The notes beneath the pieces were generated by a model that was not told the DNA's origin, made no database searches, and saw nothing but the letters and a program-made list of their open reading frames with translations. From Clostridia bacterium (GTDB taxonomy: Bacteria; Bacillota; Clostridia; Christensenellales; UBA1242), in contig JAFVWN010000060.1 in assembly GCA_017501645.1 (NCBI GenBank), positions 91,063 to 155,062 of the forward strand: a stretch of DNA of 64,000 bases, given 5' to 3'. This document shows, in pieces, positions 9,786-35,139 of this stretch (its first letter is position 1; every line of letters begins with the position of its first letter). The position numbers and the translations under genes were made by a program.

Positions 9786-9791
9786 ATATGT

Positions 9792-10874
9792 ATGAAAAAA
9801 ATAATATCAATTTCATATATGTCATTTATGCTGGTCTTTGCTCCATTCTCTTTTGTTTTAGGAACGGCAAGTGTTATTAGATTAATTACAAATCGACCTA
9901 TATTTTATCACGCAATTATGATTACAAATAAAAGCTATGTAAATGATAATAAAGAACTTTTGAGTATTGTTTCAAAGGATGGTTTTACATACGCAAAAAT
10001 AAAACAAAATGCTTGTTTATATAAAACAAGTGATATCTCTAACCATTCTTTTAATAATGTATATTATATTTTGCCAGAATCTTACTTTGTTGTAATTCTT
10101 GACAAAATCAACTCTTTAATATATAAAGCTCAATACATAAATCAAGTTGGGTATATCTCTAGTGAAGATGTTGAAATTGTAGACTTTATTCCTACAGTTC
10201 AATTTTTAGAAAATATAACTTTTGATATACTTGAAAATGTAGGAACGCAACTAAGACACTTACCTACCGCATCAGCTAACGAAAATATAAAAGTATACTT
10301 GCCTGCTGGTACATCTAATATTACATATATCGCTTCAATCAATGGAGAAATCCCTACCGGTGGGTTTTCTGGTATTTGGTATTATTGTTTGTATAGTCCA
10401 AACAACGACCCCACTAGTGTTTATGATGGATATGTTTATAGTGAAAAGACTAGAAATTTATCTACAATTCCTCCCAATCTTGAAGGGGAAATATCTATTA
10501 ATACTAAAGATGATACATATGAAAATAAGGTTTCAATAAATAAGACAATAAAGAGCATTTTAATTATCTTCATTTGTTTGCCAATAATTTTAGTTTTTGT
10601 TTTGCTTGTCCTTCAAAATAAAAGAAATAAAAAGAAAACAGGTTCTACAACTGAAGATTTTTTAGATAAAAACTTTTTATCAAAGAATGAAAATGAAAGT
10701 AAAAATGATAATGAAAACATTACGCTTAAGAAAAATGGCAAATTTTGTAAAGTTGATGAATTAAGAGGTTGTTCATTATCGAGAAAAACAACAAAACATA
10801 AATTTGTAGATATTGATGAGCAATTACCGTCATTTCCGGCGTATGAGATTGTTGATGATGACGATTTGTTGTAA
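9792..10874 (+). CDS. Membrane protein with N-terminal signal/TM, two SH3b-like repeats and a TM helix plus an acidic C-terminal tail
   Basis: SH3b-like endings are present (...YKAQYINQVGYISSEDVEIV; ...GIWYYCLYSPNNDPTSVYDGYVYSE). The TM helix is SILIIFICLPIILVFVLLVL followed by KRNKKK. It lies on the opposite strand to the phage genes. Confidence 0.5.
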   Translation: MKKIISISYMSFMLVFAPFSFVLGTASVIRLITNRPIFYHAIMITNKSYVNDNKELLSIVSKDGFTYAKIKQNACLYKTSDISNHSFNNVYYILPESYFVVILDKINSLIYKAQYINQVGYISSEDVEIVDFIPTVQFLENITFDILENVGTQLRHLPTASANENIKVYLPAGTSNITYIASINGEIPTGGFSGIWYYCLYSPNNDPTSVYDGYVYSEKTRNLSTIPPNLEGEISINTKDDTYENKVSINKTIKSILIIFICLPIILVFVLLVLQNKRNKKKTGSTTEDFLDKNFLSKNENESKNDNENITLKKNGKFCKVDELRGCSLSRKTTKHKFVDIDEQLPSFPAYEIVDDDDLL

Positions 10875-11540
10875 CTATAAAAGTGATTTTAATTCTTTTT
10901 TTAATTTTTCATTAAAGATTTCTTCAAGCCAAGGCTCATTTCCAATCTGTGTTTTTATAAAGTAACTAGTCCAATTGTTTTTTAATGCGTTAGTTGCAAG
11001 CTTTTCAAGTGCTGAATTTATTCTCCTATAAATTGTTCTTGTTACAGACTTTGTTTCTTCTGCAATTTCTTCAGTTGTACATTTTTTTACATATTTCAAA
11101 ATTATTATTTTTCTATCTTTATCGATTAGAGAGTCTAGAAGTTTCTCAATCATTACATATAAATTTAGAAGCTTGTTTTTTCTTTCTCCCAAATCTATTA
11201 CCTTGTCAATACTTCTATATGTTGCAAGATATGAGTCTCCGTAAATATAAGATGTTGGTAGCGTTGATGCTCTATTTTCTATAATTTTGTCTATTGTGTG
11301 AATAATGTTCGGTAAATTTTTATAAGCTTCAAGAAGTGTTTTTATATACACAATCAAATTTGTTTTTCTTGCTTCTTCTAAGAGAAGCTTGTTTTCGTTT
11401 GTTGTAGAAAAATTGTCATATTTGATTATTTTGGTGTTGTTTTTGATATTTTTTTGTGTTATTTTGCGTTTTTTGTCACCATTACTAATTTTGTTTAATT
11501 TTAAATCCATTTCGTTTTGTTTGATTTTAACTGTCATCAT
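10875..11540 (-). CDS. Sigma-70 region-4-type HTH regulator (ArpU/RinA-like late activator or small sigma factor), 221 aa
   Basis: The C-terminal segment ...RKIIILKYVKKCTTEEIAEETKSVTRTIYRRINSALEKLA is a typical region-4 HTH. It has a GAGGGA RBS. It lies upstream of terL and is divergent from the giant gene. Confidence 0.55.
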   Translation of the reverse strand: MMTVKIKQNEMDLKLNKISNGDKKRKITQKNIKNNTKIIKYDNFSTTNENKLLLEEARKTNLIVYIKTLLEAYKNLPNIIHTIDKIIENRASTLPTSYIYGDSYLATYRSIDKVIDLGERKNKLLNLYVMIEKLLDSLIDKDRKIIILKYVKKCTTEEIAEETKSVTRTIYRRINSALEKLATNALKNNWTSYFIKTQIGNEPWLEEIFNEKLKKELKSLL

Positions 11541-11593
11541 TTATTCCCTCTCGTTTATTATTTAACCGTTCGCTTTTCGCCCCGTCTGTTTTG

Positions 11594-11634
11594 ATTGTAT
11601 TACAAAAAAATCAAATTTGAGCTCAAGTGTGACA
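11594..11634 (-). promoter_or_regulatory. Conserved 16-nt element (11619-11634) + -10-like TACAAT (11594-11599), copy 2
   Basis: This is an exact 16-nt match to 8076-8091, with the same 19-nt spacing to the -10-like hexamer. It lies about 80 nt upstream of the regulator start at 11540. Confidence 0.5.
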
Positions 11635-11673
11635 CTTTTTATAAAAAAAGTTTGAAAAATTTTTTAATCACAT

Positions 11674-11702
11674 TTCAAACATTTGTTTTACGAGGTTATA
11701 AT
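11674..11702 (+). promoter_or_regulatory. Candidate distal promoter of giant gene: TTCAAA-17-TATAAT
   Basis: Hexamers lie at 11674-11679 and 11697-11702, which would give a 5' UTR of about 180 nt. Confidence 0.35.
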
Positions 11703-11775
11703 ATACTATAAAAATAGACAGCACTCTGTCCACTTTTAAAAATTAAAAAAAATTTTTTTTATTGCTTAAATTCGT

Positions 11776-11804
11776 TTGGCATAAACGACATAATATGATA
11801 AAAT
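11776..11804 (+). promoter_or_regulatory. Candidate proximal promoter of giant gene: TTGGCA-17-TGaTAAAAT
   Basis: The -35 is at 11776-11781, the TG at 11796-11797 and the -10 at 11799-11804. The UTR would be about 80 nt, with a GGGAG RBS 8 nt before ATG 11890. Confidence 0.45.
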
Positions 11805-11889
11805 AAACTATAGTTATATTTAATATATATTAAATCGTTTGCTCAAACTAATAAAAAAGTTTGGCTTACGAAATTAGGGAGTTTATTTT

Positions 11890-12003
11890 ATGAGCCTTGT
11901 AAAATCCAAAAAAATAGCAAATAAAAAATCATCAAAGTCTTTAGCAAGATTTATTTTAATGCTACTTATTTCATTTGTAAGCATTTTAACTTTTTCTGCT
12001 TGT
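11890..12003 (+). other. Lipoprotein signal peptide with lipobox (..LTFSAC, Cys codon 12001-12003)
   Basis: Positively charged n-region, a 15-aa hydrophobic core, then F-S-A-C. Confidence 0.6.
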
Positions 12004-15000
12004 GATTGGACTAATGACCCAGATACACCTGAGTCTAATTTTGACAAAGATGGAAATCTAAGGATTCAAGCCCCTTATATTCATTTTAATCCCGAAACAA
12101 AAAGTGCCTATGACGACACTTCTATTATTGATGATGTTTCAGGAAGTTTCACTTGGGAACTTGCTTATTTTGTTAATGATGGAACTAAAGATGTAAATTA
12201 TGACCAAACTTACTATCTTGAAAACTATTATACGGACAGTAAGTATGAAAACATTTACAATTACTATGACCACAGTAACGGAATAAAACCAAAATACTTC
12301 TCTACTTCTGCTGATGCTGTAGAACATTTTGGAATATCAAATGTTGAAGGAAGCGGTTCTGGTTTTTACGCAATCGACCAAAGTGATCCTATAGGAACAA
12401 AGCTCATTAAAGTTTATACTCCTGCCGAAAAAATTATAAACGGTAACAAATCTATATCTTTCCCTAGTTTTGAAGTTGTTGTTGATGGTAAGTATTATAC
12501 ATTCAAAGTAACTTTACATCCTTACTACTTAGGCAAAAAGATTTATGAAGAAACTCCGTTTGTGGATAATAGTTTTGATTATGACAAGCGAGAGTTCAAA
12601 GAGATTGATGCTGAGGGTAACCCTGTTAAATCTTTATTCAGTTTTAGCTATAGAGTAGGAAAAGCTTCAACAGGCGCCGGCGATTTCCTCCCTTGCCCTG
12701 ATGGATTTATGACATACTATATTGATGAAGACAACAAGTTTATGATAAGGTTTAATCCTAGACTTGAAGAAGGTTCTACTAATAGATATATTAAGGTTAA
12801 GGCCTTAACAGAAACCGACAATGGAAGAACCAGCTCTCTTTATTCAAACACAGCTTCATATGAAGCTTATACTATGACTTTCTCTGCTTATAGTCCAAAC
12901 TCAACAAGTGTAGATTATGGCTCATTGATTTATGACGAAAGTGATTACTACTTCCACACTGTAAAAAAGGTTTATAACAACAGAACGAAAGAAAATGATA
13001 TTTCTTCAATGGTTGGTGTATTCCCTGAAGGAAGAAGAGTTATTGTTTCTCGACAAATCGAGTTTGCAGACGATTATGATTATGCCCTTCAATCTTGGAC
13101 AATGAATACTAAAGCTGAAAATTCAATATCAATTGCCAATGCTTTTCCATCTACAACTATTGAAGATTCTAAATTTAGTATGCTTGAATATGTTGCCACT
13201 GGTACAGTTGATGATTATTACAAAGATTTATTAAGAATAACAACAAGTGATTCTTGTATTCCAAACGCGAAAAAAACAGGCTCGGAAGCTTTTGCTGAAG
13301 TTGAAAACTTCTATAAAAGCACTGTCTGTACTCAATGTTCAGGAACTGGAATTGATGCATCAAGTGCTTCGTGTGAAAATTGTGGTGGAAAGGGATATGC
13401 TTATCCTAAAGCCCCAACATTTAATTACTATACTAAAGGTCAAATAACTGAATTAAACACTCCTAGTAAGTATGTAAAAGATACCATTTATAATATGTTT
13501 GATAACACAGATAAAATTGTTGCTGTAAGAAGCGACCTTGCAGTAGTATCACACAATAAAGTAAATGGATACAAATTCTATGCAAACTTTGCTAAAGTAA
13601 GAAATTTCTCTTTAAGTGGAACATTCTTTGCTGGAGACAATTTCTTTAACGGAGGAAACCAATATTTAACTGATGTTACAGTTTCTGTTTTTGATAAAAA
13701 AGGAAACAGATTATGTATTAGTAATGTTAATAGAACTTTCAATATTATTCAACTTAATGTAAATGAAGATAAAGATGGCAATGGAGAACCTGATGCAACA
13801 GGAGATAAATTATCTTCTGTTTATAGAGTTAATGACATTAGTTTTATTTTTGATGGTTCTTATTTTACCGTAACTGGACTAGAAATTGGAGACTACTTGA
13901 TGTTTGAAAAAGTTGGTGCTCCCCTACTTGATGACCCAATTTTTGATGACGCAACCAATTTACCTTATGGGTTCCACTCTACTCAAATGGTGAGACTAGA
14001 TATTGCTTCTATTGGTATAAACACTAAAGTCCTTTGTGTAAAAGAAACTGATGATCTTTATACTGATAGACAAGATATAGGAATTATTGGTACTCAATAT
14101 GCTGAAGAAAGTAGCTTGATGGTTAACCTCTATCAAGTTGATGACCTAACTGGTGAAAAAACAGAAGTTGAAGGAGGCATTAAGCTACTAAGCGAAGGCA
14201 ATGTTTCTTATGAAGTTATTAAAAGCGTAAGTTCATATGAAGATAAGTATGGCTACATAACAACTAATATTATTATATCTATATTGCTACCATCAAATGC
14301 GACTTTGGTTGGTTATAATGCTGAAACAGTAAATGATAATCAAGCCGTATATTACTCTTTAGGCAATAAAAATAACGAACCAACATTTATCTTGAAGAGA
14401 ACTTATGATAAGTTAAAACAAGAATATTCAATGAATTTTGAAAAAGATTTATATTCATTCTACACAGTCCCTGTAAATGAAACCGAAGTAACTACAGTAA
14501 CAGCGGGTACATTCGTGTTATATAATGGAGATACTTATTCTTACTCACACAATACAACAAGCGACCTTCCATCAGGTCTTACAACTACCTCATTCTATAA
14601 TAGATTGAATGAACCAAACGAAAATGAATATCAAGTACTTGCAAAAGTTGTTACCGGTTCTTCAACAAGATGGGAGTTAATAAAATACACTAAAGTAGAT
14701 GCATCAAGAATCACTGGAGATATGATGGAAGATGGAACTGGTGCTAGCCAAATTAAGTTCCCTGTGTTCTGTGTTGATGGTGATAGACTTTATCAATATG
14801 AAGGCAAAAACGAAATTGCCAGCGGTGAAGCAAACGAAGTAAGCACTGTAGTTGGTGTTTATAAAACAGAAATGGTTCAATCTACAGCTGATGGCACAAA
14901 TAATATTTATGCATATTATGATGTAAAACAAGCTCACGAAAAAGTTTACTATACATCCCCTATTGCAAAAGAACATTATGTCGAAAGTGACAAGCCCGGC

Positions 15001-18000
15001 GAAGAAGGTTTAATTACTGTTGATATTGCTTACTATTTTGCAGAAATTACAAACTTTGATTCTTTAAAATCAGCAGGCAAAATAATGCTTGGTAGTCAAA
15101 TATTGGCAGGTAGCACTACTCTAGCAAGGCAGTTTAGAGAAGTTCTTGGTGCAAAAATTGTTCAAAGTTGTTATTACTATATTGAACCAATTGGTGAAAC
15201 AATAAACGGTAAAGCACATCAACCAATTACAGTATTGGCAAAACAATACTTGCAAACCATACAAGGTGTTGGACAACAACAAGTTAACACAACCTATTAC
15301 TATAATGATGGTGGGCTTAAAGTTTTTGCCGGTAGTATAAATGGCGCAGATCTAATTGCTAATGATACCGTATTTGCTGCTTATAATATGAATGGCGCAG
15401 TAATTGATTTGGAAAAATATTCAAATATTTCACGAGGAGAAATGTTTGATGCTTCAGGTATTTTAAATTATGATGTTGGTTATAATGTAATACTTGGTGC
15501 ACATAATTATATGTCTTCTCATACAATTGTTGAAACTGATACTCTTGGACCAGAAAATCAAAAACCAGGTTTTATGTTTGTTGAAAATACAGAACAAACA
15601 ATTAATGGTTTAAAAATAAGATATGCATATACTTTATATGAATTAAATCCAGATGGAACAATCTCTTCTACGGCTTTATACTATAATGCAGATGAAGGAA
15701 ATTTTTATAGAATACTTGATACCTACCCTATTTCTTATCCTATTGTTATAGACGAAATTGAAACAATTGAAACAAAAACAATTTGTGAAGTTGAAGAAAA
15801 TACAGGATTTAAAATAGAAGTCAAAAATTCTAGTGGTAATTTACTTGATAGATTTAGAGTTACAAAGATTGCAGGAACATCTACTGTAAAAACTTATACT
15901 CAAGAAGAAAAAGTTGGTACTAGCGTTGTTACTAAAACTTATACAACATATGAAGCATTTTTAGTTCCATCATTCTATGTTACAAACCAAGATGGTAACA
16001 CAGAAACTCAAATATATAATATGGTAAGTGATGGTTCTACTCAATCAGTCCCTTGTACCTTTGCAGTATCTTCAAATCCTGTGTTCAAATATACAGGAAC
16101 TTTAGCTAGTGGTGCTTCTGTTTCATTGATTCCTGAAATCACAACAACTTCTGTTGCTTCAAATGAAACAGCTCTTGTAAGAACTGCTCAAATTGCAAAC
16201 ACAAACACTCAAGTTACAATGCTTGGTAAATATATTCAAACTGGCGATTCAAGTGAACCAATAGTTTACCCATCATTCTCTAATCTTAATAAATGGTCAT
16301 TAGATGAAGCATTCATTTTAAAAGGTAATGGCTCAACCCAAGCAGATATGTTTGACCATTACTATGAACTTGATTATACTAGCAAAAAACTTGTTATTGA
16401 AGGCTTCCCTGGTGTTCGATTGCTTGCGGGTGCTCCATACCCTAACCCTGTAATTTATTTGTCAGTGAGACATAAAAAGACAGAAGATGCAGTTGTTAAC
16501 CTTAGCTTTGATATTAAAAATGCATACTTTGTTGAAATTATGGGTACTCAAATAAAAACAGAGGACTCAAACTTAATAAGAGACTTTACAACCTATGCAT
16601 TTAAAGACACAGTAACAAACTTATCTCTTAATGATTATATTGATAAATCTTATTGGATTTTAGATGCTGTAACATTGAAACCTGTTATTCCTTATATATA
16701 TAAGGATGGAAAATATCAACCAAAACTTGTTGATGAAGATGATAATCCAATTGAATTATCTATTCAAGATGTTGGTCTAAATGAAGATTCAGTAGAACTC
16801 TTCTATTCTGATACAATATCAGCAACTGGCATATATAAAGAAAAAATTTATATGCAGTATGTAAAGAACGATGGAAGTATTGGCTATAAAACTATTAACT
16901 ATGAAGAAGATGTAATTTTGTGGCGTACTGATGCAACAATGGTTGAAAGAGTTCCTATGTATGATATCCACTCTTATACTCAAGGAAAAGACGGAATTAT
17001 ATATTTTGACTCTGGTACTGATACTGACGATAATGTTCTATGTATTGGTCTTGAAGGTATTTCTTCAGGTGCAACTCAACAAGAAGATTCAATGTTTAAC
17101 TATGATAAAGTTCTTGTAAGTGGTGTTACTAGTGCGTATAGAACTAAAACAACCGAACTTAATATTTCGGATTCTATGTATTATGGTTACTGGTTCGATA
17201 AAGGCTTGAATGTAATGAATGCTTATGATAGTAATGATGCGTACTTCTTAAGCGGAAAAGAATCAGTGGTAATTATGGCAAGTCCAACCGTTCAAGTAAA
17301 TGCAGAGAATGGAGACAACTATATATATAGATTTAAAGAGTGGCAAATTTACTCACGATACAACAGTGAAGTTATGTACTACAATAGAGGTTTAACAGAG
17401 AACCTTATTGATAGAGAAAATGCTATTTTAAGATTTTCATCAAATGAAGCTGGCTATTTTGTAATATTACCAGTTTATCAAAGAGTTTATAAGATTGATT
17501 TAGGTACTGCTGTTATTGATGGTGCTATTAACCAAGGTGGAGATATAAGCGTTCTTTATAGCGGTGGTGCAGATGTTGATGTAGAAAATGCAACTAAAGA
17601 AGAGTTATATTTGATTGAATATTTCAAAACCGAATTTAACAATCAAGAGGGCTACTACTACTCTAATATTCTAGGTGCTCCTTACTTATGGTTTACAGGA
17701 GAACTTGATAGAGATACATCAATGCCAATCTTTGAGAAAAAAGAAAACATTTATGCTATAAGATACAACCAAACTTATAAGAGATTTTTATCTACCCATT
17801 CGACCGGTGATATTATTCTCTACTTTGAATTACTTATGAGTGGAGATTATGTTACAGGCGTTAAACCAGTGAGAGTGCTTTCAAATATTGCTGTTGGGTA
17901 CCCAGGCCTTGTTCCTATCGTTAACGACAACGGTCAATATCATATTTGTGGGACAGCATATATAGAAAGTTTTGATGAGTTTAGATTTAAAACAGGTACT

Positions 18001-30000: not shown

Positions 30001-31701
30001 AAAAAATATCTAGATGTTGATACTTTAGATGGTTATAACTTTGATCAAGTTTACAGAAATGGTTATTCTTATAACCAAGCAGAGTATGTTACAACAAATA
30101 CTGCAGGAAAAATCAAACTTGATGAAAATGGAAAATTGATTCCAAAATTAAATAACATATTTAACTATGTAAACATTAATAAAGTTGGAACAACAACTGT
30201 TGCTACAGTTAAAGATAATCTTTTTGAAATCACTGTTGATGGAGAAAAAGTACCTGTTTCCGATTTCATTGATGTTGAAATTGACACAGCATTAGGAACA
30301 GTTAAATTTGATATAAAAGTTAGAGCTTCTAAGACAGGTTTGCCTGATGTTAAAATCACAATGAATAAAAAGACTGGTATAAATGGTGTTACAGCCCATA
30401 CTATTGAGGTAACAAAAAGTAATGACCACACTGTTAAGAGAGGTCCAACAATTTCAACAACTGTTAAAGGATTTAACCTTGAAGCATTTAGTAATAGTGA
30501 TTTTATGACCGACCCTAACTACGAATTACCAGACTTAGATGTTGGATTAATTCTTAAGTGGCAAGAAAAAGCCATAGCAATTGATACAACTGTAAAAATT
30601 TCTGGCAAAGAGGTACACTTAAGTGGCGAACAATCATTAAAAGCAGATCTATCTTCATTGAAGTGTCAAACACATAAGTATTGTAGTAAGTGTAAAGGAC
30701 TAAAAAATGCTGCAACTTGTCAAGATTATGAAATTATGGCTTATTTCATAGTTGTTGTTGAAAATGGTTTATATTATCAATATTTACTTGAAGATCTCTT
30801 GGGCAATAGTAAATTAACCAAGAAAGACAAAGAAAACCTTAATAACTACATTGCAGCATTCCTAGGGGAAACTCCAGGAAACACAACAGATACTGGTGCT
30901 GTATATAATGTTGCAGACAGGTCAACTGGAAACTTCTTGGATAGCGATACAAGAAAAGGAATTTTAAGTATTTTAAATAAATATTATGACAACAGGTTTG
31001 CAGGAATTAGTCATAATGATATCTTAAAATACAAAGTGTATGATACTTTCCACAACTTTAGAGAAGGTGTAAACATCAACTTCTACCCTGTTATAATGAA
31101 TACTCAAGATATGATCCTCAATATGCCTCTTCTTCAAGAACACGCTAGAGGACAACATAATAACTGGCCAGAAAATTGGAAATTCCCATTAACAGGCGAT
31201 AAAGGTTTCAACTATTACAGAAATGCATATACTGGATATCATTCAAATATTGATACAGGTCTAATGAAGTTCGTTTCATACGAGAATTACAATTGTACTC
31301 CAGATGACAATAAAGACAAAGTTGGTTTATGGAAAAAGTTTACAAACTATGTTACAGGTATCTATAATGGTGCAAAAAAATATGCAGCAACATATCATAG
31401 ACTGCTTCACAGTATGTTAGTTTTAGACTCTTCGATTAATATGGATAGACTTGTTACTCTCGGTGCATCTTTAACAATTACGGTAAATACCTCTCCAGAA
31501 CAAGACACTAAATCTATAATTCTTAGTGGCTTGCATGACTGGGAAGTAATCCCAATTCAAAATGCAGCACACGCTTTTTGGGAGATTACAACTGGAGGAA
31601 TAGCTGTAACCCTTATCAAGTTTATTATTGTAAAATGTGTTGACAGCGAAGCTTCATTATTCGACAAGATTGCAAACCAAAACCATTGGGGTATGTATTA
31701 G
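11890..31701 (+). CDS. Giant (6,603 aa) predicted surface lipoprotein with degenerate Listeria-Bacteroides / InlB-B-type repeats and Cys clusters
   Basis: The frame is 19,812 nt and uninterrupted in AT-rich DNA. The N-terminus MSLVKSKKIANKKSSKSLARFILMLLISFVSILTFSAC has a K-rich n-region, an h-region and a lipobox Cys38. There are at least 12 Y/F-x-F-x-G-W/F motifs. Confidence 0.9.
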   Translation: MSLVKSKKIANKKSSKSLARFILMLLISFVSILTFSACDWTNDPDTPESNFDKDGNLRIQAPYIHFNPETKSAYDDTSIIDDVSGSFTWELAYFVNDGTKDVNYDQTYYLENYYTDSKYENIYNYYDHSNGIKPKYFSTSADAVEHFGISNVEGSGSGFYAIDQSDPIGTKLIKVYTPAEKIINGNKSISFPSFEVVVDGKYYTFKVTLHPYYLGKKIYEETPFVDNSFDYDKREFKEIDAEGNPVKSLFSFSYRVGKASTGAGDFLPCPDGFMTYYIDEDNKFMIRFNPRLEEGSTNRYIKVKALTETDNGRTSSLYSNTASYEAYTMTFSAYSPNSTSVDYGSLIYDESDYYFHTVKKVYNNRTKENDISSMVGVFPEGRRVIVSRQIEFADDYDYALQSWTMNTKAENSISIANAFPSTTIEDSKFSMLEYVATGTVDDYYKDLLRITTSDSCIPNAKKTGSEAFAEVENFYKSTVCTQCSGTGIDASSASCENCGGKGYAYPKAPTFNYYTKGQITELNTPSKYVKDTIYNMFDNTDKIVAVRSDLAVVSHNKVNGYKFYANFAKVRNFSLSGTFFAGDNFFNGGNQYLTDVTVSVFDKKGNRLCISNVNRTFNIIQLNVNEDKDGNGEPDATGDKLSSVYRVNDISFIFDGSYFTVTGLEIGDYLMFEKVGAPLLDDPIFDDATNLPYGFHSTQMVRLDIASIGINTKVLCVKETDDLYTDRQDIGIIGTQYAEESSLMVNLYQVDDLTGEKTEVEGGIKLLSEGNVSYEVIKSVSSYEDKYGYITTNIIISILLPSNATLVGYNAETVNDNQAVYYSLGNKNNEPTFILKRTYDKLKQEYSMNFEKDLYSFYTVPVNETEVTTVTAGTFVLYNGDTYSYSHNTTSDLPSGLTTTSFYNRLNEPNENEYQVLAKVVTGSSTRWELIKYTKVDASRITGDMMEDGTGASQIKFPVFCVDGDRLYQYEGKNEIASGEANEVSTVVGVYKTEMVQSTADGTNNIYAYYDVKQAHEKVYYTSPIAKEHYVESDKPGEEGLITVDIAYYFAEITNFDSLKSAGKIMLGSQILAGSTTLARQFREVLGAKIVQSCYYYIEPIGETINGKAHQPITVLAKQYLQTIQGVGQQQVNTTYYYNDGGLKVFAGSINGADLIANDTVFAAYNMNGAVIDLEKYSNISRGEMFDASGILNYDVGYNVILGAHNYMSSHTIVETDTLGPENQKPGFMFVENTEQTINGLKIRYAYTLYELNPDGTISSTALYYNADEGNFYRILDTYPISYPIVIDEIETIETKTICEVEENTGFKIEVKNSSGNLLDRFRVTKIAGTSTVKTYTQEEKVGTSVVTKTYTTYEAFLVPSFYVTNQDGNTETQIYNMVSDGSTQSVPCTFAVSSNPVFKYTGTLASGASVSLIPEITTTSVASNETALVRTAQIANTNTQVTMLGKYIQTGDSSEPIVYPSFSNLNKWSLDEAFILKGNGSTQADMFDHYYELDYTSKKLVIEGFPGVRLLAGAPYPNPVIYLSVRHKKTEDAVVNLSFDIKNAYFVEIMGTQIKTEDSNLIRDFTTYAFKDTVTNLSLNDYIDKSYWILDAVTLKPVIPYIYKDGKYQPKLVDEDDNPIELSIQDVGLNEDSVELFYSDTISATGIYKEKIYMQYVKNDGSIGYKTINYEEDVILWRTDATMVERVPMYDIHSYTQGKDGIIYFDSGTDTDDNVLCIGLEGISSGATQQEDSMFNYDKVLVSGVTSAYRTKTTELNISDSMYYGYWFDKGLNVMNAYDSNDAYFLSGKESVVIMASPTVQVNAENGDNYIYRFKEWQIYSRYNSEVMYYNRGLTENLIDRENAILRFSSNEAGYFVILPVYQRVYKIDLGTAVIDGAINQGGDISVLYSGGADVDVENATKEELYLIEYFKTEFNNQEGYYYSNILGAPYLWFTGELDRDTSMPIFEKKENIYAIRYNQTYKRFLSTHSTGDIILYFELLMSGDYVTGVKPVRVLSNIAVGYPGLVPIVNDNGQYHICGTAYIESFDEFRFKTGTAVDEIGQTYSTSEPMRLKDLVCHTFTGEFFYDSILSETTDNSVSIVVHYDEDSKRFSGLDLTTLNSRVENALKARDKWFFTPVKSLLEYVLYWNMIYNSHIFSDAQVFEKIGKKYDGNYLDNPDLEQLTFSSFNLNNSLTEPIARSVTNYHTVMFKYSDDIMVGEDFYRSTYASLDGGELAYDEEGNLYSAIQFKTAYIDRDTTVKLVASSGHGYRVEGWYQCIYDEEAGVWYTTDEKVKNSDNVYGDEILLAEYNETLKTYFYITQYFEERGVGKIYYFDEEKTEEAEVPQRMLDKVRGYFVNQGTETNPNWIQVYKKGNGDETAYYYDRQFSRLVDLQVYKVEEKSFYEAIRKVVDGENTHYTLNNITIYRKTDEEGNNEQFFRTMSTGNIVVDGNTLIINKLHSNLRYVAKFIEVYTEYIFAEPPEASGIEVKAVYYTTTDNEKVERDGEFTIIRTDLEGHNLTGEYHADFNAHGIDESVTGLDENFFNLYEQEEAKTAVAKAGKTGNLTPQIMRTTVTNPNTGKTFTKYTADSYTNYSKLLSGDFGSDNKAYLVNAEKDELLKGELTLRNMYFDVHTDVYIVVGVKSDAELTVHSLGFSPSYNIEPIIEPSEEFINHNQSADADEKYDYLYYMFKISYDRNPQNPLAPYEVHSKRYTSIASDVLAGNYTEFYQNHFDIYDNFGNRINYQSIANTENNTGRKVRLSSYLQTLRNKKIISNEIYAKYSSEIFDNVRDCLEAVSREAKNPGLLYVDYAIAKNGEVDEEGNAIILRSADDIFRAVRDIKVKDPDDPDKMIYYFKTPRLIRTGSQNTVNLSSIPIYSYTIQAVTVDDYTYDKSGNLVFTEPEEVEVPKDLEEGEEVPDPEEPRLILNNSKKHFLKNTIYTAAGTNKYTYLGYGDLFELPTPLIYVDDKYSENVELHFKDSYINLEYGEENEDKTILADLPIAANTIMLLEGADMAQEGYAFVGWFEQKYNKKSNVCLYKDQYNCTCSPDVECECEDHECEFGKEGWSELTLMSNELEHPYLTLSTADTVIVAVYKKVVDVSITYDNREMNIELPTGNMDSLGKDVLITVDDTKHTTTISGKFYFDTYQQFIVSPVGGYRFDGFEYQVSKDGEWSAVYTTGYDDKHIHYIDRNNEVKDHYDISLNSVIGVSYAMSECIVECEKHKDPYEKVRITIKAKKITLVHIEVENFYAFNEGEYTFSGWNFALYDIGLQHGSEPQLIVKTINSEDQEKIEVLLEYNDQVREGKSGEKSFHHYYVKDSAGNLVQGNIDQGTLKLYGYFDVEMSGNLLLVAFDGSSVIRKWYINGHPNTTDTYENLSSYGIPEQRKSFAAQFDAAFNIHFHYPESIDNGKGSTIDYNTNNYFALDKDNDVYYARAVIEAASSVTITHTFIESIEGDGATRVGVEAGTGSYSSVQAYSILAYNGSFSYIDGAGNMVTENNGTFAVKNKGEYKFSEDTTLNISVQAEFITIDGKLYKFLGWFDSYGTAGSASSYIISREMSLSAMEPKGVYEAKYVRVHRVELDYNAFGQIEVDPYNEIEALSPDYNQNVPTEVFGYYDGGHYYIMSGAELIINAYATEGYVLPDFTVTPLEDAPGELKHETEDNIDYLKLTVHEVDRAVRVSANFDEGYDITINQMLHSSVDMAQDAEYLSTVYSYITYRDRELKTTRYAVPKNSTVKFSVKGEEAEENEFPEYFFLGWYIDDVLMSRDITSGAILYDYEHTLTKDLVIEARFVPYVNVVVSSRVVGINTTVNKFAYTMTYKDLRTNTECTYSKTTQISLPMGLVVNLVANDENVSNAYEFVGWKMMQGTTVLKTFASEKDANITLSSDLIQNDKIYIYALYGRKTTLNLYKNITIREEDRATYLVNGELSDEFMSMFDLVVEYIDIFGNTKTIRLGANESILDISASQYTSVKIKYEMSNVVADRYYLDNILVKSSGNTKYTYTATYFEDQEWQTVSLSSNVSMNITATFKPSSAITIATELNGTKQDIFSSRNDVVYEFGTGDSAIKGTVDNGSKAIKVPAISQFTVTATSPAYGNGGEIYYKFVGWYNGGTLITTDLVLTEAKASGKIVFGTNINLTARYVAVVNNITINRVFDGSTPDIEKANALEVSATANFYRNNINTGTGDIKLFTLAIEDGKTSAQDELIVANQKVILIATHLAGYDFVGFEVVQGELLDDGAYVTNSFNTVKHITPAPCQSLVINAIYKEKTYSVNYVVTSYNSTSNEGGAISNYTEYVGPSETSISFAISNASFKAYINGNAVSHYSTGGTYTIAIPSSCRNCDLTVELRYIASESYSTINAGSGKSWFVKDAHEEMYAISHMSNLKILSSDYAKLNLVSAKDPYSGTLFNTTYRIDYYDGNTTNPVSSSAVTTNKPTDKIIVGADNKKYVFEGYWARIGTASSYTFIKVGSTIDANVGGYWSNIIAKYRRVEEVNLTPSVKGASHTVSYVRTPFAINPTYVNTAIGDGSQSTYYAFVSGSNLTLSVNPKTALDISTKKATYVLVDGITTSYSSRIDSIIDSYTLARNNVQTTINLLGTKINGAVCSISANTGKTAIPRTASTNGVGDSVAINPINEEINLSLSINVTGAEEVDRISTMYVNIYSTDGTYYEPLAITKATGITTITVKTGSTISLSYSIGDHKQFLYYSIAGVQYKDITYNYTIADGYGSNITIVGYFTGKYTASIEENDTTKGVASLMQTTSTSSTYNLSITNKDSFMISGIYFATVESGNDGTYDYSPLFLNSLHLSYSNKQLSSISGMVSSVSYTFIKSSPDDDSKTYNTALTLRFTALDNVVIKIEYMHVTKLIIEVKEKNAVQGQYTFYLSEFADPELKVADELTLEKLKARIDGISSATLRDALVYLPEDLCTFSFEGNTFDDTVSINHTKRDNVLVTLNRLTQVEVTVYIIMNFEKTDGGANLYNTPKEGLQISYDDTTVAKYNSSTKFTYVSAKSKPIVAEDTNGFFKFDGYYVGDDKEEDLQISSSSDYVLLSTDFGGTKFKKQADGSYAVYAIFTESLLTITIDADFGNNQASFAISQTDTEDGYKNFTETKQTLSFVNASGEDIGNLTYFFNTETEQYEMTYPASLVKNSTQIYIKAIDFDEEVTDDVYITEVLSAQGITKFYQKTIKTEGNSVDNEYYRFYRFVDAGGLMVGNLYTNFTAVDLGGYETGTSLTAETKELYMIEYTYNYLPDLFYIDMTMTVLKGSTLSTITIGTTQGQSYKEFDKALIRYLAEKDMNITVGTHFLPGYDYALYADFESIVYSKSVMISDILLKEGNEYVLGENGVPGTPTKLHNKDNVAPCGYYIDTAKEYWDTLLNEGVTGVYTAKFLPVANYYKSENAYSKFESFNFLAKENTSFVADFYNIAQNIKYFIFSILSNYDYDGFVNNEFKTSGHDFKVSFSSGKMGLGYFFTITAANTDYEITTQAPLTKDLDSGKTRNYAQDFFDDEASIKAEDDSSLVKITPYFKNSPFDERIRAELQYKGTTHAITTDKSASDLQYSQTNIHMMISNVAYLDFSALKLIKHYQEEGILYGSNGMPEKETKDALSYYVEGDIPTYKNYNDYIVKYEQKPYAYSGIGYKVKAEIIEGYYFKGFIMVSSGYDATYDLMGFGGETVRPTGKTFTYIPHKMNTDIDEDGNEYYTSAETVDFFTLEYATKIYALYEARVYVINVSTFEFKEDNEKLYAEHNSGEQKGEIDNEKSMMTTLDVESSIIKGSLIVEHGEDAKLTSQNLLFMQFVGWATTKEFDNDSLSYDDKFKVAFDTGLGLKGNYDLHVDEEHLTTLKYNDVKVGYYDKDGAYHGDIQGYNVEKDEFAVSTARNNIYIYDMNRDIDIIAYYTYISYRITINLADIIPTYYYADKYATDLRGTTTYLTYPDYIRETPGWTNPSAGTYNQSWDWGTNELNEREFTSSVYIDSHDPYVYTYVDNEGNALTYPTKIQYSLIDISKSQQTGNLVYKKISKSGTYQNVLCAKKYGAGTPLPYYDRAEDIKKYLDVDTLDGYNFDQVYRNGYSYNQAEYVTTNTAGKIKLDENGKLIPKLNNIFNYVNINKVGTTTVATVKDNLFEITVDGEKVPVSDFIDVEIDTALGTVKFDIKVRASKTGLPDVKITMNKKTGINGVTAHTIEVTKSNDHTVKRGPTISTTVKGFNLEAFSNSDFMTDPNYELPDLDVGLILKWQEKAIAIDTTVKISGKEVHLSGEQSLKADLSSLKCQTHKYCSKCKGLKNAATCQDYEIMAYFIVVVENGLYYQYLLEDLLGNSKLTKKDKENLNNYIAAFLGETPGNTTDTGAVYNVADRSTGNFLDSDTRKGILSILNKYYDNRFAGISHNDILKYKVYDTFHNFREGVNINFYPVIMNTQDMILNMPLLQEHARGQHNNWPENWKFPLTGDKGFNYYRNAYTGYHSNIDTGLMKFVSYENYNCTPDDNKDKVGLWKKFTNYVTGIYNGAKKYAATYHRLLHSMLVLDSSINMDRLVTLGASLTITVNTSPEQDTKSIILSGLHDWEVIPIQNAAHAFWEITTGGIAVTLIKFIIVKCVDSEASLFDKIANQNHWGMY
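13327..13395 (+). other. DnaJ-type zinc-finger pair CTQCSGTG-x8-CENCGGKG inside giant protein (aa 480-502)
   Basis: There are two exact matches to the CxxCxGxG motif of the DnaJ cysteine-rich domain. Confidence 0.5.
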
Positions 31702-31730
31702 CGTGCCTCAAAAAAATAAAGGACAATAAA

Positions 31731-33641
31731 ATGAAAAAATTAATCAAAAGAATAATAACAACTTGTTTATCATTACTGTTTATAGTTCTTAGTTTAATTA
31801 CTGTGACTGCACTGGAAGCTAAAACTTCCAGTGCTTCCCTGTCCTTTTCTGCTTCAGCAATAGATAATACTATTGGTGGAGTTCAAACTCGAGCTATGGA
31901 TGACACTATGTTTTTGATAGAGCCAGACATTGTGAGAACTTCAGGGAAATATATATATGTTTATGATAAAGCAGAATCAACTATAAAAGTTATTGATAAA
32001 GATACAAATACTTATAAAGAAGCTAATAATCACTATATAACAGCGTTAGGTGTTGATGATATTTTAATAAGTAATGATGCGCTATTTTTATTCAATAAAC
32101 AATCTGGGAGTTTCACTTGCATAGATGCTGAGGATTTTGAATCTTTAACATTTGAGCATTCTTCACTCTCATACCTTTCTTCTGCAAAATTTATTAAGCA
32201 TATAAAAATTGGTGAAGACGATTATATGCTCACCTGCCCAGAAAATCCAATTACTGCAGATTTTGAATTTGCAAAAATAACAAGAACAGATAATTCATTA
32301 TCTATTGATTCTGTTTCAAAATTTAGAATTAGTTCAAACTTCCAAGACTCATTATCTTCATATAATGAGATATTTGTTGATAGTAATGATGAAAAACTAT
32401 TCTTAATGCTAATTAATGAGAGTAATAATATATTATCTTGTCAAATTGATCCTACTAGCGTAGAGACTGTGCAAGTACAAATGACAGGCGTAACAGGTTT
32501 TGATTCTGTAAACAACATATTAGATGTTTCCTCTGTTAAAATTACAGATAAAGATAAAGTTGTTGCAGTAACCACTCAAAATACAATTGAATTTTTTGAA
32601 TTAAGCATTAGCTCTAGTCAAGTTTCAATGACACCAATTACAGATATGCAAATTAGTATCGAATCAGGTTTTGTTCCAACTGATGCGCACGGAACAAACA
32701 AAACATTAGCTCTTGTATCCAATTCATCTCAAGAGTTAAAAATTATTAATTTCGATAAAGAAATTGCTCCTTATTACTATAAACAAGAAATAAAAAATCC
32801 AACTATAAATCGTTTTTTATATTCACATAATGATTTCACATATTTAAAAGTGATTAATGACACCCCTATCCTATCTTTACCTTATAGTAAAGAAGGACAA
32901 ATTGAGGCAAATGTTAATGACGAGGTGGTTGTAATTGGTGAAGGTCAAGATGAAAATCAAAACAAGGTTTATGGATGGTATTATGTACTTTATTCTAAAG
33001 ACAATGTCAACTATTACGGCTATATTGCAAGTATTGACACAAATCAAAAAACAGAAACAAGTTATGAAAAGAATTATGTAACAGTTATTGCGTACACAAA
33101 ATTGTACACATATCCTAGTAAAATAACAGATGAAATCAATGTTGCAAAACCTAATCAAAACAATGTTAATGATCCGTATATCACAAAATACTCTAGAATT
33201 GAAGTTCTAGACAGTTTATGTGATTATACCTCACTTGGTACAAAGTATTTAAAAGTAAAAGTCAATGGCGTTGATATTGGTTTTATTGATCGAGAGAGCG
33301 TGATTGTGTCTAGCGATAATTCAGGAAGAATCATCCCAAATGCTACAGTTACTCATAATAATAGTGAAATATTTACTTCAACTGATACTAATAGACAAAC
33401 TATTGATTTATTAGATAAAGGCAAAAGAGTAAAAGTAATAGGCAAAAGAGATACAAAAACAAACTTTACTTTAATTACCTACAATGACAATGAAGGCAAT
33501 GAATGTACAGGGTATATTTATACTTATAATCTAGAGACTGATTCTTGGACAATGCTCCAAACAATAGGAATTTTGCTTGTAATTATTAATGTAATATTGC
33601 TTGTCATAATCATTTGTCTTAAAAACAAATTTACTAGATAG
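31731..33641 (+). CDS. Exported protein: signal peptide, beta-propeller-like region, three SH3b-like repeats, C-terminal TM anchor (636 aa)
   Basis: ATG 31731 has an AAGGA RBS, whereas the ORF-track start at 31686 overlaps the giant gene. The protein begins MKKLIKRIITTCLSLLFIVLSLITVTALEA. SH3b endings are present (GWYYVLYSKDNVNYYGYIASI; VKVNGVDIGFIDRESV; ECTGYIYTYNL). The TM helix is GILLVIINVILLVIIICL. Confidence 0.6.
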   Translation: MKKLIKRIITTCLSLLFIVLSLITVTALEAKTSSASLSFSASAIDNTIGGVQTRAMDDTMFLIEPDIVRTSGKYIYVYDKAESTIKVIDKDTNTYKEANNHYITALGVDDILISNDALFLFNKQSGSFTCIDAEDFESLTFEHSSLSYLSSAKFIKHIKIGEDDYMLTCPENPITADFEFAKITRTDNSLSIDSVSKFRISSNFQDSLSSYNEIFVDSNDEKLFLMLINESNNILSCQIDPTSVETVQVQMTGVTGFDSVNNILDVSSVKITDKDKVVAVTTQNTIEFFELSISSSQVSMTPITDMQISIESGFVPTDAHGTNKTLALVSNSSQELKIINFDKEIAPYYYKQEIKNPTINRFLYSHNDFTYLKVINDTPILSLPYSKEGQIEANVNDEVVVIGEGQDENQNKVYGWYYVLYSKDNVNYYGYIASIDTNQKTETSYEKNYVTVIAYTKLYTYPSKITDEINVAKPNQNNVNDPYITKYSRIEVLDSLCDYTSLGTKYLKVKVNGVDIGFIDRESVIVSSDNSGRIIPNATVTHNNSEIFTSTDTNRQTIDLLDKGKRVKVIGKRDTKTNFTLITYNDNEGNECTGYIYTYNLETDSWTMLQTIGILLVIINVILLVIIICLKNKFTR

Positions 33642-33649
33642 AGGCAAAA

Positions 33650-34966
33650 ATGTACAATAAAATTTATAAATTTCCAAACGGTGCGACAATAATTTACAAA
33701 AAAAGAAAAAGCAATAAAGCAACTGCAATTAATGCCGGTTTTTATTGTGGTCATCAGTATGCAAATAATGGTCTCCCTCACTTCTTTGAGCATATGTTCT
33801 TTAAAGGAACAACTAAAAGAAGTATGGAGCAAATTATTGATGACAGGTCTGCAATAACTTTTTTAAACGCTTACACAAATAATGATTTAGTTTGTGTAAC
33901 ATTTTATCAATCAAATAAAAGACTTGAACAAAGTTTTGAATTTGCAAGTGATGTTCTTCTAAACTCAACTTTTGACGCAGAAAAATTAAGCAATGAAGTA
34001 AAGGTTGTTCAAGAAGAAAAAATAAGATACATTGATAATAGTCGAAAAAGTCATATGGTGATGCACGAAATGTATATAAAAAAGAATTTTAAAAGCTTAG
34101 AAACTCAAGCTGATAGAATTTTTGGCACTGATGACTTTTTAAATACTATCACACCAAAAGATTTAGAAAATTATAGAGACGAACACTTTGTGACTGATAA
34201 ATTCATAATCTCAGTAACAACAAATCTCTCTTTTTCTAAAATCAAAAAACTTGTTAAAAAATATTTTCTTAATCATATTAAAACCCCTGAAACACCATCT
34301 ACAATACTTCCAGTTGAAGTTTATGAAATAGATAGAGAGTCTGGTGTTAATTTGGTTCAAAATAATGACAAAGGTTATAAAGCTGTTATAACAATTAAGA
34401 TGGATGCGGATGGTCATAACTACAGATATGACTATAATCTAGATTGTTTAAGCGACAGTCTCGGGGATAGAAAAGATTTGTATCATTATGAAGTGAGACG
34501 ACAAGGTCTTGCCTACTCTTGTAGAACAGGTGTTGATTATAATAATTTCAAAAATACTTTATGGATTGGCGTTGATTTCACAACAAGCAGTATTGAAAAT
34601 ATATCCAAAATACTAAGCGTTCTTGGCGATTCAATACAAATACTAAAAAAAGACGGTCTATCACAAGAAGACATTGATTTATTTAAAGAAAATTACATCA
34701 TTTCTAGGGACACAAGGAGGCCTTCAAGCCATAAAGATTTAGTTTATGATAATTTACTCAAATACTTAAGATATGGCGAAGAAAAAGCCAAAACAGCGAA
34801 ACAAATCGAAAAATTCTATGACAAGATAACTAAAGAATCAATAATGGAAAACATCACAAAATGTTTCAACAAAGACAATGATGTTCACATTACAATTATG
34901 GGTGATTTTACTAATGCACAAGTAAAAACCATAGAAGAATACAAACAATTAGTTTTTAAAAATTAA
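33650..34966 (+). CDS. M16 (pitrilysin/insulinase) family zinc peptidase, no signal peptide
   Basis: The HxxEH motif sits in GLPHFFEHMFFKGT. The 438-aa size is typical of M16B. The start is 8 nt after the previous stop, with an AGAGG RBS. Confidence 0.75.
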   Translation: MYNKIYKFPNGATIIYKKRKSNKATAINAGFYCGHQYANNGLPHFFEHMFFKGTTKRSMEQIIDDRSAITFLNAYTNNDLVCVTFYQSNKRLEQSFEFASDVLLNSTFDAEKLSNEVKVVQEEKIRYIDNSRKSHMVMHEMYIKKNFKSLETQADRIFGTDDFLNTITPKDLENYRDEHFVTDKFIISVTTNLSFSKIKKLVKKYFLNHIKTPETPSTILPVEVYEIDRESGVNLVQNNDKGYKAVITIKMDADGHNYRYDYNLDCLSDSLGDRKDLYHYEVRRQGLAYSCRTGVDYNNFKNTLWIGVDFTTSSIENISKILSVLGDSIQILKKDGLSQEDIDLFKENYIISRDTRRPSSHKDLVYDNLLKYLRYGEEKAKTAKQIEKFYDKITKESIMENITKCFNKDNDVHITIMGDFTNAQVKTIEEYKQLVFKN

Positions 34967-35006
34967 TTTTTTAAAAATTAAATTGTATATTTTTATATTA
35001 TTTTGC

Positions 35007-35030
35007 CACATTTTATACAAATGTGTTTTT
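35007..35030 (+). terminator. Weak AT-rich hairpin + U-run after M16 gene
   Basis: CACATTT-tatac-AAATGTG followed by TTTTT. Confidence 0.35.
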
Positions 35031-35055
35031 GTTATGCATTTTTATGTTGATTTTT

Positions 35056-35079
35056 AGAACTTTTTAAGTTCTTTTTTTT
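35056..35079 (+). terminator. Rho-independent terminator closing the giant-gene operon
   Basis: AGAACTT-ttt-AAGTTCT followed by T7. Confidence 0.55.
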
Positions 35080-35105
35080 GTTATACAAATATATTTTTAA
35101 TAAAT

Positions 35106-35139
35106 AAAAGCAATCTCTCTAAATATAGATTGCTTTTTT
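35106..35139. terminator. Bidirectional terminator between convergent operons
   Basis: AAAA-GCAATCT-(10 nt)-AGATTGC-TTTTTT. It is usable on both strands. Confidence 0.5.

Follow-up and report, generated by a model that had tools for sequence, protein, structure and literature searches.

A Conserved Giant-Lipoprotein Operon in Gut Clostridia

We analyzed a 64,000-nucleotide stretch of DNA from an uncultured Clostridia bacterium (Christensenellales, UBA1242; GenBank assembly GCA_017501645.1, contig JAFVWN010000060.1, positions 91,063–155,062 of the forward strand), referred to below as the window and numbered from its first letter. It contains a 23-kb block of plus-strand genes headed by a gene for a predicted giant lipoprotein of 6,603 amino acids. 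Comparative analysis showed the block to be an envelope operon that is conserved in a low-GC lineage of uncultured gut Clostridia. We consider it probable, if well short of certain, that the operon sits within the regulatory hub of a phage-derived gene cluster that is ancient and has been inherited vertically. An earlier note on the same DNA had proposed a self-contained four-gene system; in our opinion, the finding is more interesting for its genomic context than as such a system.

The overall layout consists of a leftward block that runs from a holin-like gene through tail, capsid and portal genes to the large terminase gene (TerL), followed by the rightward gene p351, a leftward sigma-like gene, and the rightward giant gene, gene2 and, in part of the loci, an M16 peptidase gene. 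The open reading frame (ORF) map of the window places the sigma-like gene at 10875–11540 (minus strand), the giant gene at 11890–31701 (plus strand) and the third gene of the operon at 33650–34966 (plus strand). The ATG of gene2 is at 31731, and the ORF listing stretches its frame back to a TTG at 31686. The giant gene and gene2 are separated by 29 nt (31702–31730) with a ribosome-binding site (RBS), AAAGGA, ahead of gene2, and the gap between gene2 and the M16 gene is 8 nt (33642–33649), with the RBS AGAGG. The region between the divergent sigma-like and giant genes is 349 bp long (11541–11889). All these genes, gaps, RBSs and the divergent region had been placed identically in the earlier note. 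GC content is ~30% across the window, with no shift between the block and its flanks.

Six terminator-like sites were detected within the giant gene, against 7.5 expected from shuffled sequence, and among them was one poor site on the plus strand. The tandem terminators that had been suggested at 35007–35079 do correspond to two hairpins, but both are weak (−4.7 kcal/mol each), and the first is no better than shuffled sequence. The best candidate for the operon terminator is a hairpin at 35106–35139 (−10.3 kcal/mol, z = −3.8; not assigned to a strand), which has a U-run after the stem. Its A-run/stem/U-run form would also suit termination of the convergent SSB gene. The sequence is thus compatible with one transcript for the giant gene, gene2 and the M16 gene.

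Gene neighborhoods were compared across seven giant-family loci, in which the giant proteins are 26–43% identical to that of the window; NCBI labels the relatives as metagenome-assembled genomes (MAGs) of Clostridia, Christensenellaceae or Christensenellales. Gene2 directly follows the giant gene in all seven loci. The upstream flank was recovered in six of them, the seventh (L002) having ~2.3 kb upstream with no sigma or phage module in it. In all six recovered flanks the sigma-like gene is upstream of and divergent from the giant gene, and the block ahead of the giant gene comprises, far end first, genes for virion proteins, capsid, a scaffold-like protein and portal, two small ORFs, TerL (minus strand), p351 (plus strand) and the sigma-like gene (minus strand). 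The p351 equivalents are 290–350 amino acids long and lie on the plus strand across loci. The chromosomal position beside SSB and gyrBA is the same in six of the seven loci; in L007 the right flank differs (DegV and PolA instead of SSB and gyrA), and the upstream phage-derived block is still present. Hence the co-occurrence of the four originally proposed genes holds for the giant gene with gene2 (7/7) and for the sigma-like gene (6/6 flanks), but not for the M16 gene (4/7), whereas the adjoining phage genes seen earlier are indeed there and belong to the conserved neighborhood.

Mean pairwise identity is 31% for the giant protein, 35% for gene2, 42% for p351 and 44% for the sigma-like protein, compared with 71% for gyrA. 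The more than 2-fold faster sequence evolution of the giant family relative to its neighbors suggests an interface with the host, with phage or with other bacteria.

The Giant Lipoprotein Family

The giant gene is a single uninterrupted ORF whose product carries an N-terminal lipoprotein signal, internal repeats and a C-terminal hydrophobic segment. The N-terminus, MSLVKSKKIANKKSSKSLARFILMLLISFVSILTFSA followed by the lipobox Cys (LTFSA-C), has the positively charged n-region and hydrophobic h-region typical of lipoproteins. The pattern L[TS]F[STAG][AG]C is found at the same position in all 24 giant homologs, and agrees with the Gram-positive lipobox pattern. One hydrophobic segment (residues 6566–6584) is located at the C-terminus, and the C-termini of the homologs are hydrophobic too.

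The body of the protein is mostly beta-strand and contains at least 13 Flg_new-like repeats of ~80 residues with a GY.F.GW motif (residues ~1750–5650), as identified by a custom seeded hidden Markov model (HMM). The same custom HMM found 7–13 copies in the giant homologs, with the consensus ...LTA.P..GY.FvGWy. A self-BLAST of the giant protein at 1e-3 did not find the internal repeats, which were recovered by the seeded HMM only. The window protein had no match in Pfam at E ≤ 1, Flg_new/PF09479 and PF18998 included, and a PDB sequence search with both of its halves gave none at the same threshold. Faint precomputed Pfam matches to Flg_new are present on four giant homologs.

Intact relatives of 6,320–7,181 residues fall into 24 clusters at 90% identity and come from ENA, Logan, NCBI and JGI assemblies. 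An exhaustive profile search of 1.84 billion representatives with the giant core (residues 1480–2680) yielded 72 proteins, among which all full-length members have 6.3–7.8 thousand residues; the remaining weak matches are other multi-repeat proteins that align at the GY.F.GW motif only. Within these 1.84 billion representatives, the core had no relatives outside the family except for such short GY.F.GW matches. Conservation peaks at residues 1500–1900 (blocks of ~60% identity across 24 sequences) and at 2200–2700, and drops to ~20% over the C-terminal half. By prediction, the giant is a real, exported, lipid-anchored protein of an orphan family confined to one lineage, and it is probably a fast-evolving surface fiber or adhesin-like coat protein. 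With 6,300–7,800 residues and no Pfam or PDB relatives, these predicted lipoproteins account for ~20 kb of DNA per member of this uncultured lineage of gut Clostridia.

Gene2 and the M16 Peptidase

Gene2 (31731–33641, plus strand) encodes a protein of 636 residues with a signal peptide or N-terminal hydrophobic segment (residues 4–22), a propeller-like region, SH3b domains and a C-terminal membrane anchor (residues 605–623). The SH3_3 match is weak in the window copy (E = 0.007) and clear in the orthologs (six of seven matched, best E = 8.9e-10). SH3b domains typically bind peptidoglycan. In the propeller-like region we obtained only weak matches to beta-propeller repeats. A protein search for homologs of gene2 returned five close relatives. 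As to the domains originally called in the block, the sigma-70 region 4 and the M16 peptidase are well founded and SH3b is borne out by the orthologs, whereas a propeller is at most suggested.

The third gene (33650–34966, plus strand) encodes an M16B-type zinc peptidase of 438 residues that matches Pfam M16 (PF00675) and M16_C (PF05193), both at ~1e-15. Its HxxEH motif (HFFEH, residues 44–48) is kept in all four orthologs, and the best PDB matches are 3hdi ("processing protease") and the beta subunit of mitochondrial processing peptidase. The gene is absent from L007, L008 and L009, and neither a signal peptide nor a hydrophobic or membrane segment was detected in its product. Because it is absent from three of the seven loci and lacks an export signal while the giant is a lipoprotein, the peptidase is neither a core member, as had been proposed, nor an obvious processor of the exported protein; we rejected it as a core component and regard it as a predicted cytoplasmic, accessory member of the operon.

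The Sigma-Like Regulator and p351

The sigma-like gene (10875–11540, minus strand) encodes a protein of 221 residues with a disordered K/N-rich N-terminus, a helical domain (residues 44–136) and a sigma-70 region 4 (residues ~130–183). Region 4 was recognized by Pfam Sigma70_r4_2 (E = 1e-6; 28.6 bits vs. a cut-off of 25.7). In an AlphaFold2 model (mean predicted local distance difference test, pLDDT, 76) the helical domain is confident, and Foldseek superposed region 4 on SigD, SigE and related extracytoplasmic function (ECF) sigma factors at a root-mean-square deviation (rmsd) of 0.8–1.0 Å. The top Foldseek matches are ECF sigma factors with E > 0.01, aligned over the whole length with high rmsd. 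Neither Pfam nor NCBIfam gave a sequence match for region 2. The protein also matched phrog_36 ("transcriptional regulator", 7e-12) and 16 NCBIfam models, all of them under the cut-off, including PRK06930 ("positive control sigma-like factor", E = 0.0035). Its homologs carry PF08281 or, in some cases, PF05263. Among these 16 sub-cut-off NCBIfam matches and the Pfam matches, the TcdR/UviA/BotR-type family is absent.

Gene p351 (9819–10874, plus strand) is convergent with the sigma-like gene and abuts or overlaps its 3′ end. The encoded membrane protein has an N-terminal hydrophobic segment, SH3b-like motifs, a membrane segment (residues 240–258) and an acidic cytoplasmic tail of ~90 residues. 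It has no Pfam family, and shares with gene2 the short SH3b-like motif GWYY..Y..YGY. Together with the sigma-like gene and TerL, p351 is kept in the six loci that have an upstream flank as well as in many giant-less ones. A role for p351 as a sensor for, or partner of, the regulator is conceivable.

The sigma-like gene and p351 lie beside TerL in at least 13 loci without a giant match. The regulator, which the earlier note had grouped with the giant gene in its candidate system, thus appears to go with the phage-derived cluster rather than with the giant gene, since it occurs with p351 and the terminase cluster in many giant-less relatives.

The Divergent Regulatory Region

The region between the sigma-like and giant genes (11541–11889, not assigned to a strand) contains a LexA-type box, two rightward promoters, a palindrome and a leader motif. 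We aligned this region first from six giant-bearing loci (350–450 bp) and then from eight regions. The six-locus alignment revealed four conserved elements: a TCGAACATATGTTYGA box, the palindrome, an extended −10 promoter (CGACATAATATGcTAAAAT) and a CAAACTAA leader. In the window, the degenerate LexA-type box TCAAACATTTGTTTT (11675–11689) overlaps a TTCAAA-17-TATAAT promoter whose −10 element is at 11697–11702, and in the six-locus alignment the box lies between the −35 and −10 elements of this rightward promoter. The palindrome GACAG-N4-CTGTC (11715–11733) takes the form GTGGACA-N5/6-TGTCCAC across orthologs. The second rightward promoter, of the extended −10 type (TTGGCA-17-TGATAAAAT), is at 11776–11804 and the conserved leader motif is CAAACTAA. 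In the eight-region alignment, both the palindrome and the extended −10 promoter are restricted, at the sequence level, to giant-bearing loci. As for its role, the palindrome may act as an operator or fold into an attenuator hairpin (−5.3 kcal/mol, z = −3.4).

In relatives, the box is perfect or near-perfect at the homologous place (TCGAACATATGTTYGA or AGAACAnnTGTTCT). TCGAACATATGTTYGA has the form of the Gram-positive LexA operator (CGAAC-N4-GTTCG). A LexA-type box was present 1.0–2.4 kb upstream of TerL in 30 of 63 loci, giant-less relatives included, compared with ~5 expected (e.g., L007:9780–9795, L037:8280–8295 and L083:8476–8491). The analogy with TcdR/UviA sigma factors that had been drawn earlier holds in one respect: a LexA-type box does precede the regulator in relatives, but a match to that sigma family was not found.

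Some loci have a AAAACGCA-type element upstream of TerL. Besides, repeated AAAA(A)CGCA/AAATGCA elements were observed in the divergent region between TerL and p351 (window ~9566–9800; L007:7890–8087; L009:6156–6338); these may be late-activator sites, and they were not found upstream of the giant gene.

A Phage-Derived Cluster Resembling Gene Transfer Agents

The in-window part of the phage-derived cluster (1019–9565, minus strand) is podovirus-like in its structural genes, as judged by PHROG and Pfam matches. All on the minus strand, it includes TerL (8108–9565), a P22-type portal (5470–7428), a scaffold-like gene (4779–5465), the major capsid protein (3517–4713) and a virion protein (1019–2494). 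To the left of the window, ~9 kb of the source contig (cluster L005:2930–19204) carry a tail protein of 793 residues, a tail fiber of 665 residues and a holin-like protein of 252 residues, followed by chromosomal RNase J. From RNase J to SSB, the interval contains a 309-residue ORF, the holin-like gene, a DUF7934 protein, small ORFs, tail fiber, tail protein, virion proteins, capsid, scaffold-like protein, portal, TerL, p351, the sigma-like gene and the giant operon. Genes for an integrase, a repressor, an excisionase or replication were not found in this interval.

The cluster has diverged in step with its hosts. Between the window and other loci, capsid (71–76%), portal (61–71%) and TerL (70–83%) are about as similar as GyrA (63–78%) and SSB plus deacetylase (60–77%). 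Mean pairwise identity is 76% for TerL and 67% for portal vs. 71% for gyrA, and over ten locus pairs the identities of head genes and host genes are correlated at r = 0.98. A TerL-alignment scan of one genome per species confirmed at least 535 relatives. The best 80 of these are 62–87% identical and belong without exception to MAGs of uncultured Clostridia, Christensenellaceae or Christensenellales from the gut of humans, ruminants and rabbits. In contrast, the best capsid matches among 50,697 sequenced phages are 26–28% identical.

Gene content, synteny, the gyrA-like rate, the correlation with host genes and the at least 535 TerL matches among species-representative genomes together argue for a domesticated element similar to a gene transfer agent (GTA) rather than a prophage. 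The cluster has structural and lysis genes without those for integration, repression or replication, and is vertically inherited, as is characteristic of GTAs and other domesticated elements; it looks like a GTA-like or domesticated element of the podovirus type. A recent prophage was rejected on gene content, synteny and evolutionary rate. The earlier view of the block as prophage cargo or an independent island does not fit these data either, since the phage genes are syntenic with the operon across orthologs of 26–43% identity, evolve at the rate of gyrA and are accompanied by no mobility genes. This phage-like cluster is a resident GTA-type candidate in hundreds of gut species and offers a candidate gene cluster, activator and SOS operator.

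The tail genes evolve fast, like surface proteins. The 793-residue tail protein and the 665-residue tail fiber were detected only in loci that have the giant gene or lack the upstream region (L011, L014, L016, L048 and L074).

A number of variants of the cluster were also observed. In L034, L025, L026, L029, L042, L055, L058, L063 and L068, the sigma-like gene, p351 and TerL are present with no detectable portal or capsid downstream, and in L034 (7111–12800) TerL is directly followed by the deacetylase and SSB genes. Such lineages may have a split, replaced or decaying cluster. Moreover, 31 "viral" contigs of IMG/VR (L090–L120), mostly fragments of 4–19 kb, encode this capsid at 46–95% identity. 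These are probably chromosomal fragments of the resident cluster that were catalogued as viruses, which calls for caution with virome catalogs, as IMG/VR counts chromosomal cluster fragments as viral contigs.

Giant-less Relatives

Window proteins were searched with tblastn against the best 80 of the at least 535 TerL loci. The giant was found only in L013, L014, L016, L018, L048, L072 and L074, and in each of these its ORF runs on without a stop as far as the locus extends. The distance from TerL to SSB and the deacetylase gene, or to gyrA, is just 4–6 kb in several giant-less loci. The gene that faces the sigma-like gene in giant-less loci encodes a protein of ~800–850 residues with a signal peptide, NHL-like repeats, SH3b and a C-terminal anchor. 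A profile comparison (hhalign) of gene2 with these ~800-residue proteins gave a probability of 94.9%, in the SH3b region only. In the simplest reading, the giant gene was inserted in one subclade into the SOS/sigma hub, upstream of an ancestral gene2-like gene.

Comparison with Known Systems

We found no paper on the giant family or on a Christensenellales GTA cluster, and no literature on the gene combination, in agreement with the earlier remark that no such described system was known. What is new here is an orphan family of giant lipoproteins, together with the location of its operon inside the SOS/sigma hub of a domesticated phage element that is widespread but had not been described.

The closest parallel to the giant protein is provided by very large extracellular proteins of small-genome Firmicutes, such as Giant1–5 of Apilactobacillus kunkeei with 3,000–8,000 residues (PMC12863079). 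Like the window giant, each of these is the product of a single gene in a low-GC Firmicute, carries an export signal ahead of a long repetitive body, has diverged rapidly and is confined to a narrow range of lineages. However, the homolog searches with the giant family detected no sequence relationship between Giant1–5 and the window giant. Giant1–4 are described as having a beta-solenoid head (PMC12863079). The giant of the window is a predicted lipoprotein with Flg_new-type repeats. It is encoded by just one gene, which is followed by that of an SH3b anchor protein and lies inside a phage-derived regulatory hub. Proteins with Flg_new/Listeria–Bacteroides repeats (PF09479 and PF18998) share the ~80-residue repeat ending in GY.F.GW, present in 7–13 copies in the giant family, but the repeats span only a fraction of the 6,603 residues, and the giant itself has no Pfam match.

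For the phage-derived cluster, the relevant comparisons are PBSX of Bacillus subtilis, which is SOS-inducible, and FpGTA of Faecalibacterium. Points in common with these Gram-positive GTA-like elements are a resident head-tail-lysis cluster that lacks replication and integration genes and is of the short-tail type (P22-type portal), a small gene for a sigma-like activator beside the terminase operon (Xpf in PBSX), and a LexA-type box. Against the Xpf-type model, the window regulator scored 17 bits, far below the cut-off of 136. FpGTA is a demonstrated podovirus-like GTA (2026; PMC12946183), whereas the present cluster is a candidate known from its genes. The same study described GTA-like packaging of ~6.3-kb fragments in Christensenellaceae (genus QANA01), with whole-MAG enrichment of HGM11616, and did not report the gene cluster responsible (PMC12946183). 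A giant surface-protein operon in the hub is not reported for FpGTA in that work and is not known from PBSX.

The group-5 sigma factors TcdR, UviA, BotR and TetR share with the regulator the divergent position of a small sigma-like gene beside a very large gene for a secreted protein and the LexA-type box upstream. The uviA gene is UV-inducible and has a LexA-type box upstream. On the other hand, the window regulator has no family-level match to this group and also occurs without the giant gene, and the giant is a membrane-anchored lipoprotein in which no toxin domain was detected. The M16 peptidase has the two-domain M16 fold by sequence and the HxxEH motif of M16B peptidases (PDB 3hdi; mitochondrial processing peptidase beta), but its context is unusual and it is dispensable for the operon (present in 4/7 loci).

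Proposed Scenario and Alternative Explanations

A reasonable scenario can be proposed as follows. The sigma-like gene and p351 would belong first to the phage-derived cluster, with the sigma-like factor being of the late-operon activator type and preceded by a LexA-type box in most relatives. The ancestral gene facing the sigma-like gene may have been the ~800-residue gene2-like protein with propeller and SH3b regions, and in one subclade the giant gene would have been inserted between the promoter region and gene2. The giant might then form a surface fiber or adhesin-like coat, anchored by its lipid and possibly also by its C-terminus, while gene2 might hold or organize it at the wall via peptidoglycan. 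Transcription of the operon would start at the two rightward promoters, of which the first, with the LexA-type box overlapping it, would be under SOS control, and the sigma-like factor may add further control.

Several observations weigh against this scenario. The LexA-type box of the window (CAAAC-ATTT-GTTTT) has three mismatches to CGAAC-N4-GTTCG. We found no convincing motif common to the regions upstream of TerL and upstream of the giant gene, such as would be expected if one factor drove both, so that control of the operon by the sigma factor is put forward here as a hypothesis. A structure model of residues 1480–2679 of the giant, the best-conserved ~1,200 residues, built with a 7-sequence alignment, reached a pLDDT of only 45 and gives no fold support for a fiber; the term is suggested by the repeats and the beta-strand content. 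Orthology of gene2 with the ~800-residue proteins is proposed from position, architecture and a profile match confined to SH3b, and the GTA-like nature of the cluster from gene content and evolutionary rate. Finally, we infer the single transcript, the surface exposure and the link between sigma factor and operon in this lineage from sequence features.

Among the alternatives, the model of the earlier note holds that the four genes form a self-contained system in which a dedicated sigma factor of the TcdR/UviA/BotR type activates the giant gene, whose product is then cleaved by the M16 peptidase. We regard this as rather unlikely. The regulator is adjacent to and divergent from the giant gene in all six recovered upstream flanks, has a true sigma region 4 with whole-length Foldseek alignments to ECF sigma factors, and is preceded in relatives by a LexA-type box that recalls the UV-inducible uviA; the M16 gene is translationally tight with gene2 (8-nt gap) and its active site is kept. 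However, the sigma-like gene and p351 accompany TerL in many genomes that lack the giant gene, NCBIfam and Pfam gave no TcdR-type match and region 2 was not detected by sequence, and a peptidase that is missing from three of seven loci and has no export signal is difficult to reconcile with the processing of a lipoprotein. A different proposal is that giant and gene2 contribute to the working of the GTA-like system, either as a recipient-side receptor that limits adsorption or DNA transfer to close kin, or as surface proteins induced together with the particles by the SOS response or the sigma factor. In favor of this idea, the operon is linked to the cluster in every recovered upstream flank, even in L007 with its different right flank, and both share a divergent hub with a LexA-type box. 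In addition, the 793-residue tail protein and the 665-residue tail fiber were detected only in giant-bearing or upstream-missing loci (L011, L014, L016, L048 and L074), and surface proteins and tail genes are both fast-evolving. The tail-gene co-occurrence is, however, confounded with phylogeny, as it is the closest relatives that bear the giant gene; a promoter motif common to both regions was not found, and the proposal has no precedent. That the giant and its SH3b partner are functional parts of an unrecognized GTA-like system, widespread in Christensenellales-type gut Clostridia, whether as a kin-restricting receptor co-evolving with tail fibers or as a surface module co-induced by SOS/sigma, thus strikes us as a speculative, low-probability idea. 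If it were true, the GTA-like packaging reported for Christensenellaceae would be encoded by the cluster of the window.

The whole region from the holin to the M16 gene (~41 kb) could also be seen as an active or recently active temperate phage that carries the giant operon as lysogenic-conversion cargo. Its set of head, tail and holin genes is complete, ~41 kb would presumably fit a P22-sized head, and IMG/VR lists 31 cluster fragments as viral contigs. But integrase, repressor, excisionase and replication genes are all missing, the position by SSB and gyrBA is the same in six of seven loci across giants of 26–43% identity, and the head genes diverge at a housekeeping rate in step with host genes. 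Furthermore, there are at least 535 TerL matches among species-representative genomes, capsid identity to the closest sequenced phages does not exceed 28%, and GC content is the same as in the flanks, all of which make a temperate phage very improbable. The possibility that the giant ORF is an assembly artifact, a pseudogene or a chance frame is negligible. Its unusual length and the lack of Pfam or PDB matches are the only points in its favor, whereas intact relatives of similar length exist in four independent data sources, which led us to discard an artifact; the lipobox is conserved, blocks of ~60% identity at residues 1500–1900 extend across 24 sequences, and an open frame of 19.8 kb in DNA of 30% GC would be beyond chance. 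An envelope operon nested in the hub of the inherited phage-derived cluster is therefore the reading that we favor.

Other Features of the Window

The right-hand 30 kb of the window are ordinary chromosome, with genes for SSB (two-OB PRK05813 type) and a polysaccharide deacetylase, gyrA/gyrB, murG, ddl, murF, tsaE/tsaB and pheST. Gyrase-like and SSB matches in PHROG had raised the possibility that the whole window derives from a jumbo phage, which was ruled out by the presence of pheST, murG, ddl, murF, tsaBE and the C-terminus of Obg.

Three additional loci in this part may be mentioned. Between the deacetylase and gyrA genes, a protein of 961 residues (36935–39820, minus strand) combines a strongly acidic cytoplasmic part rich in repeats with a single membrane segment and an extracellular C-terminal region. 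It occupies a conserved position, its relatives range from 365 to 961 residues with 27–41% identity, and it has no family match. An HTH-WYL-WCX regulator (49609–50565, plus strand; phrog_13105, 2e-31) is located among housekeeping genes and is opposite in direction to its neighbors. Finally, a DUF1538 membrane protein (4.7e-109) at 46022–48385 (minus strand) is followed by a 129-residue ORF without a family match and then by a P-II-like gene; these three genes may constitute a transporter-plus-regulator set.

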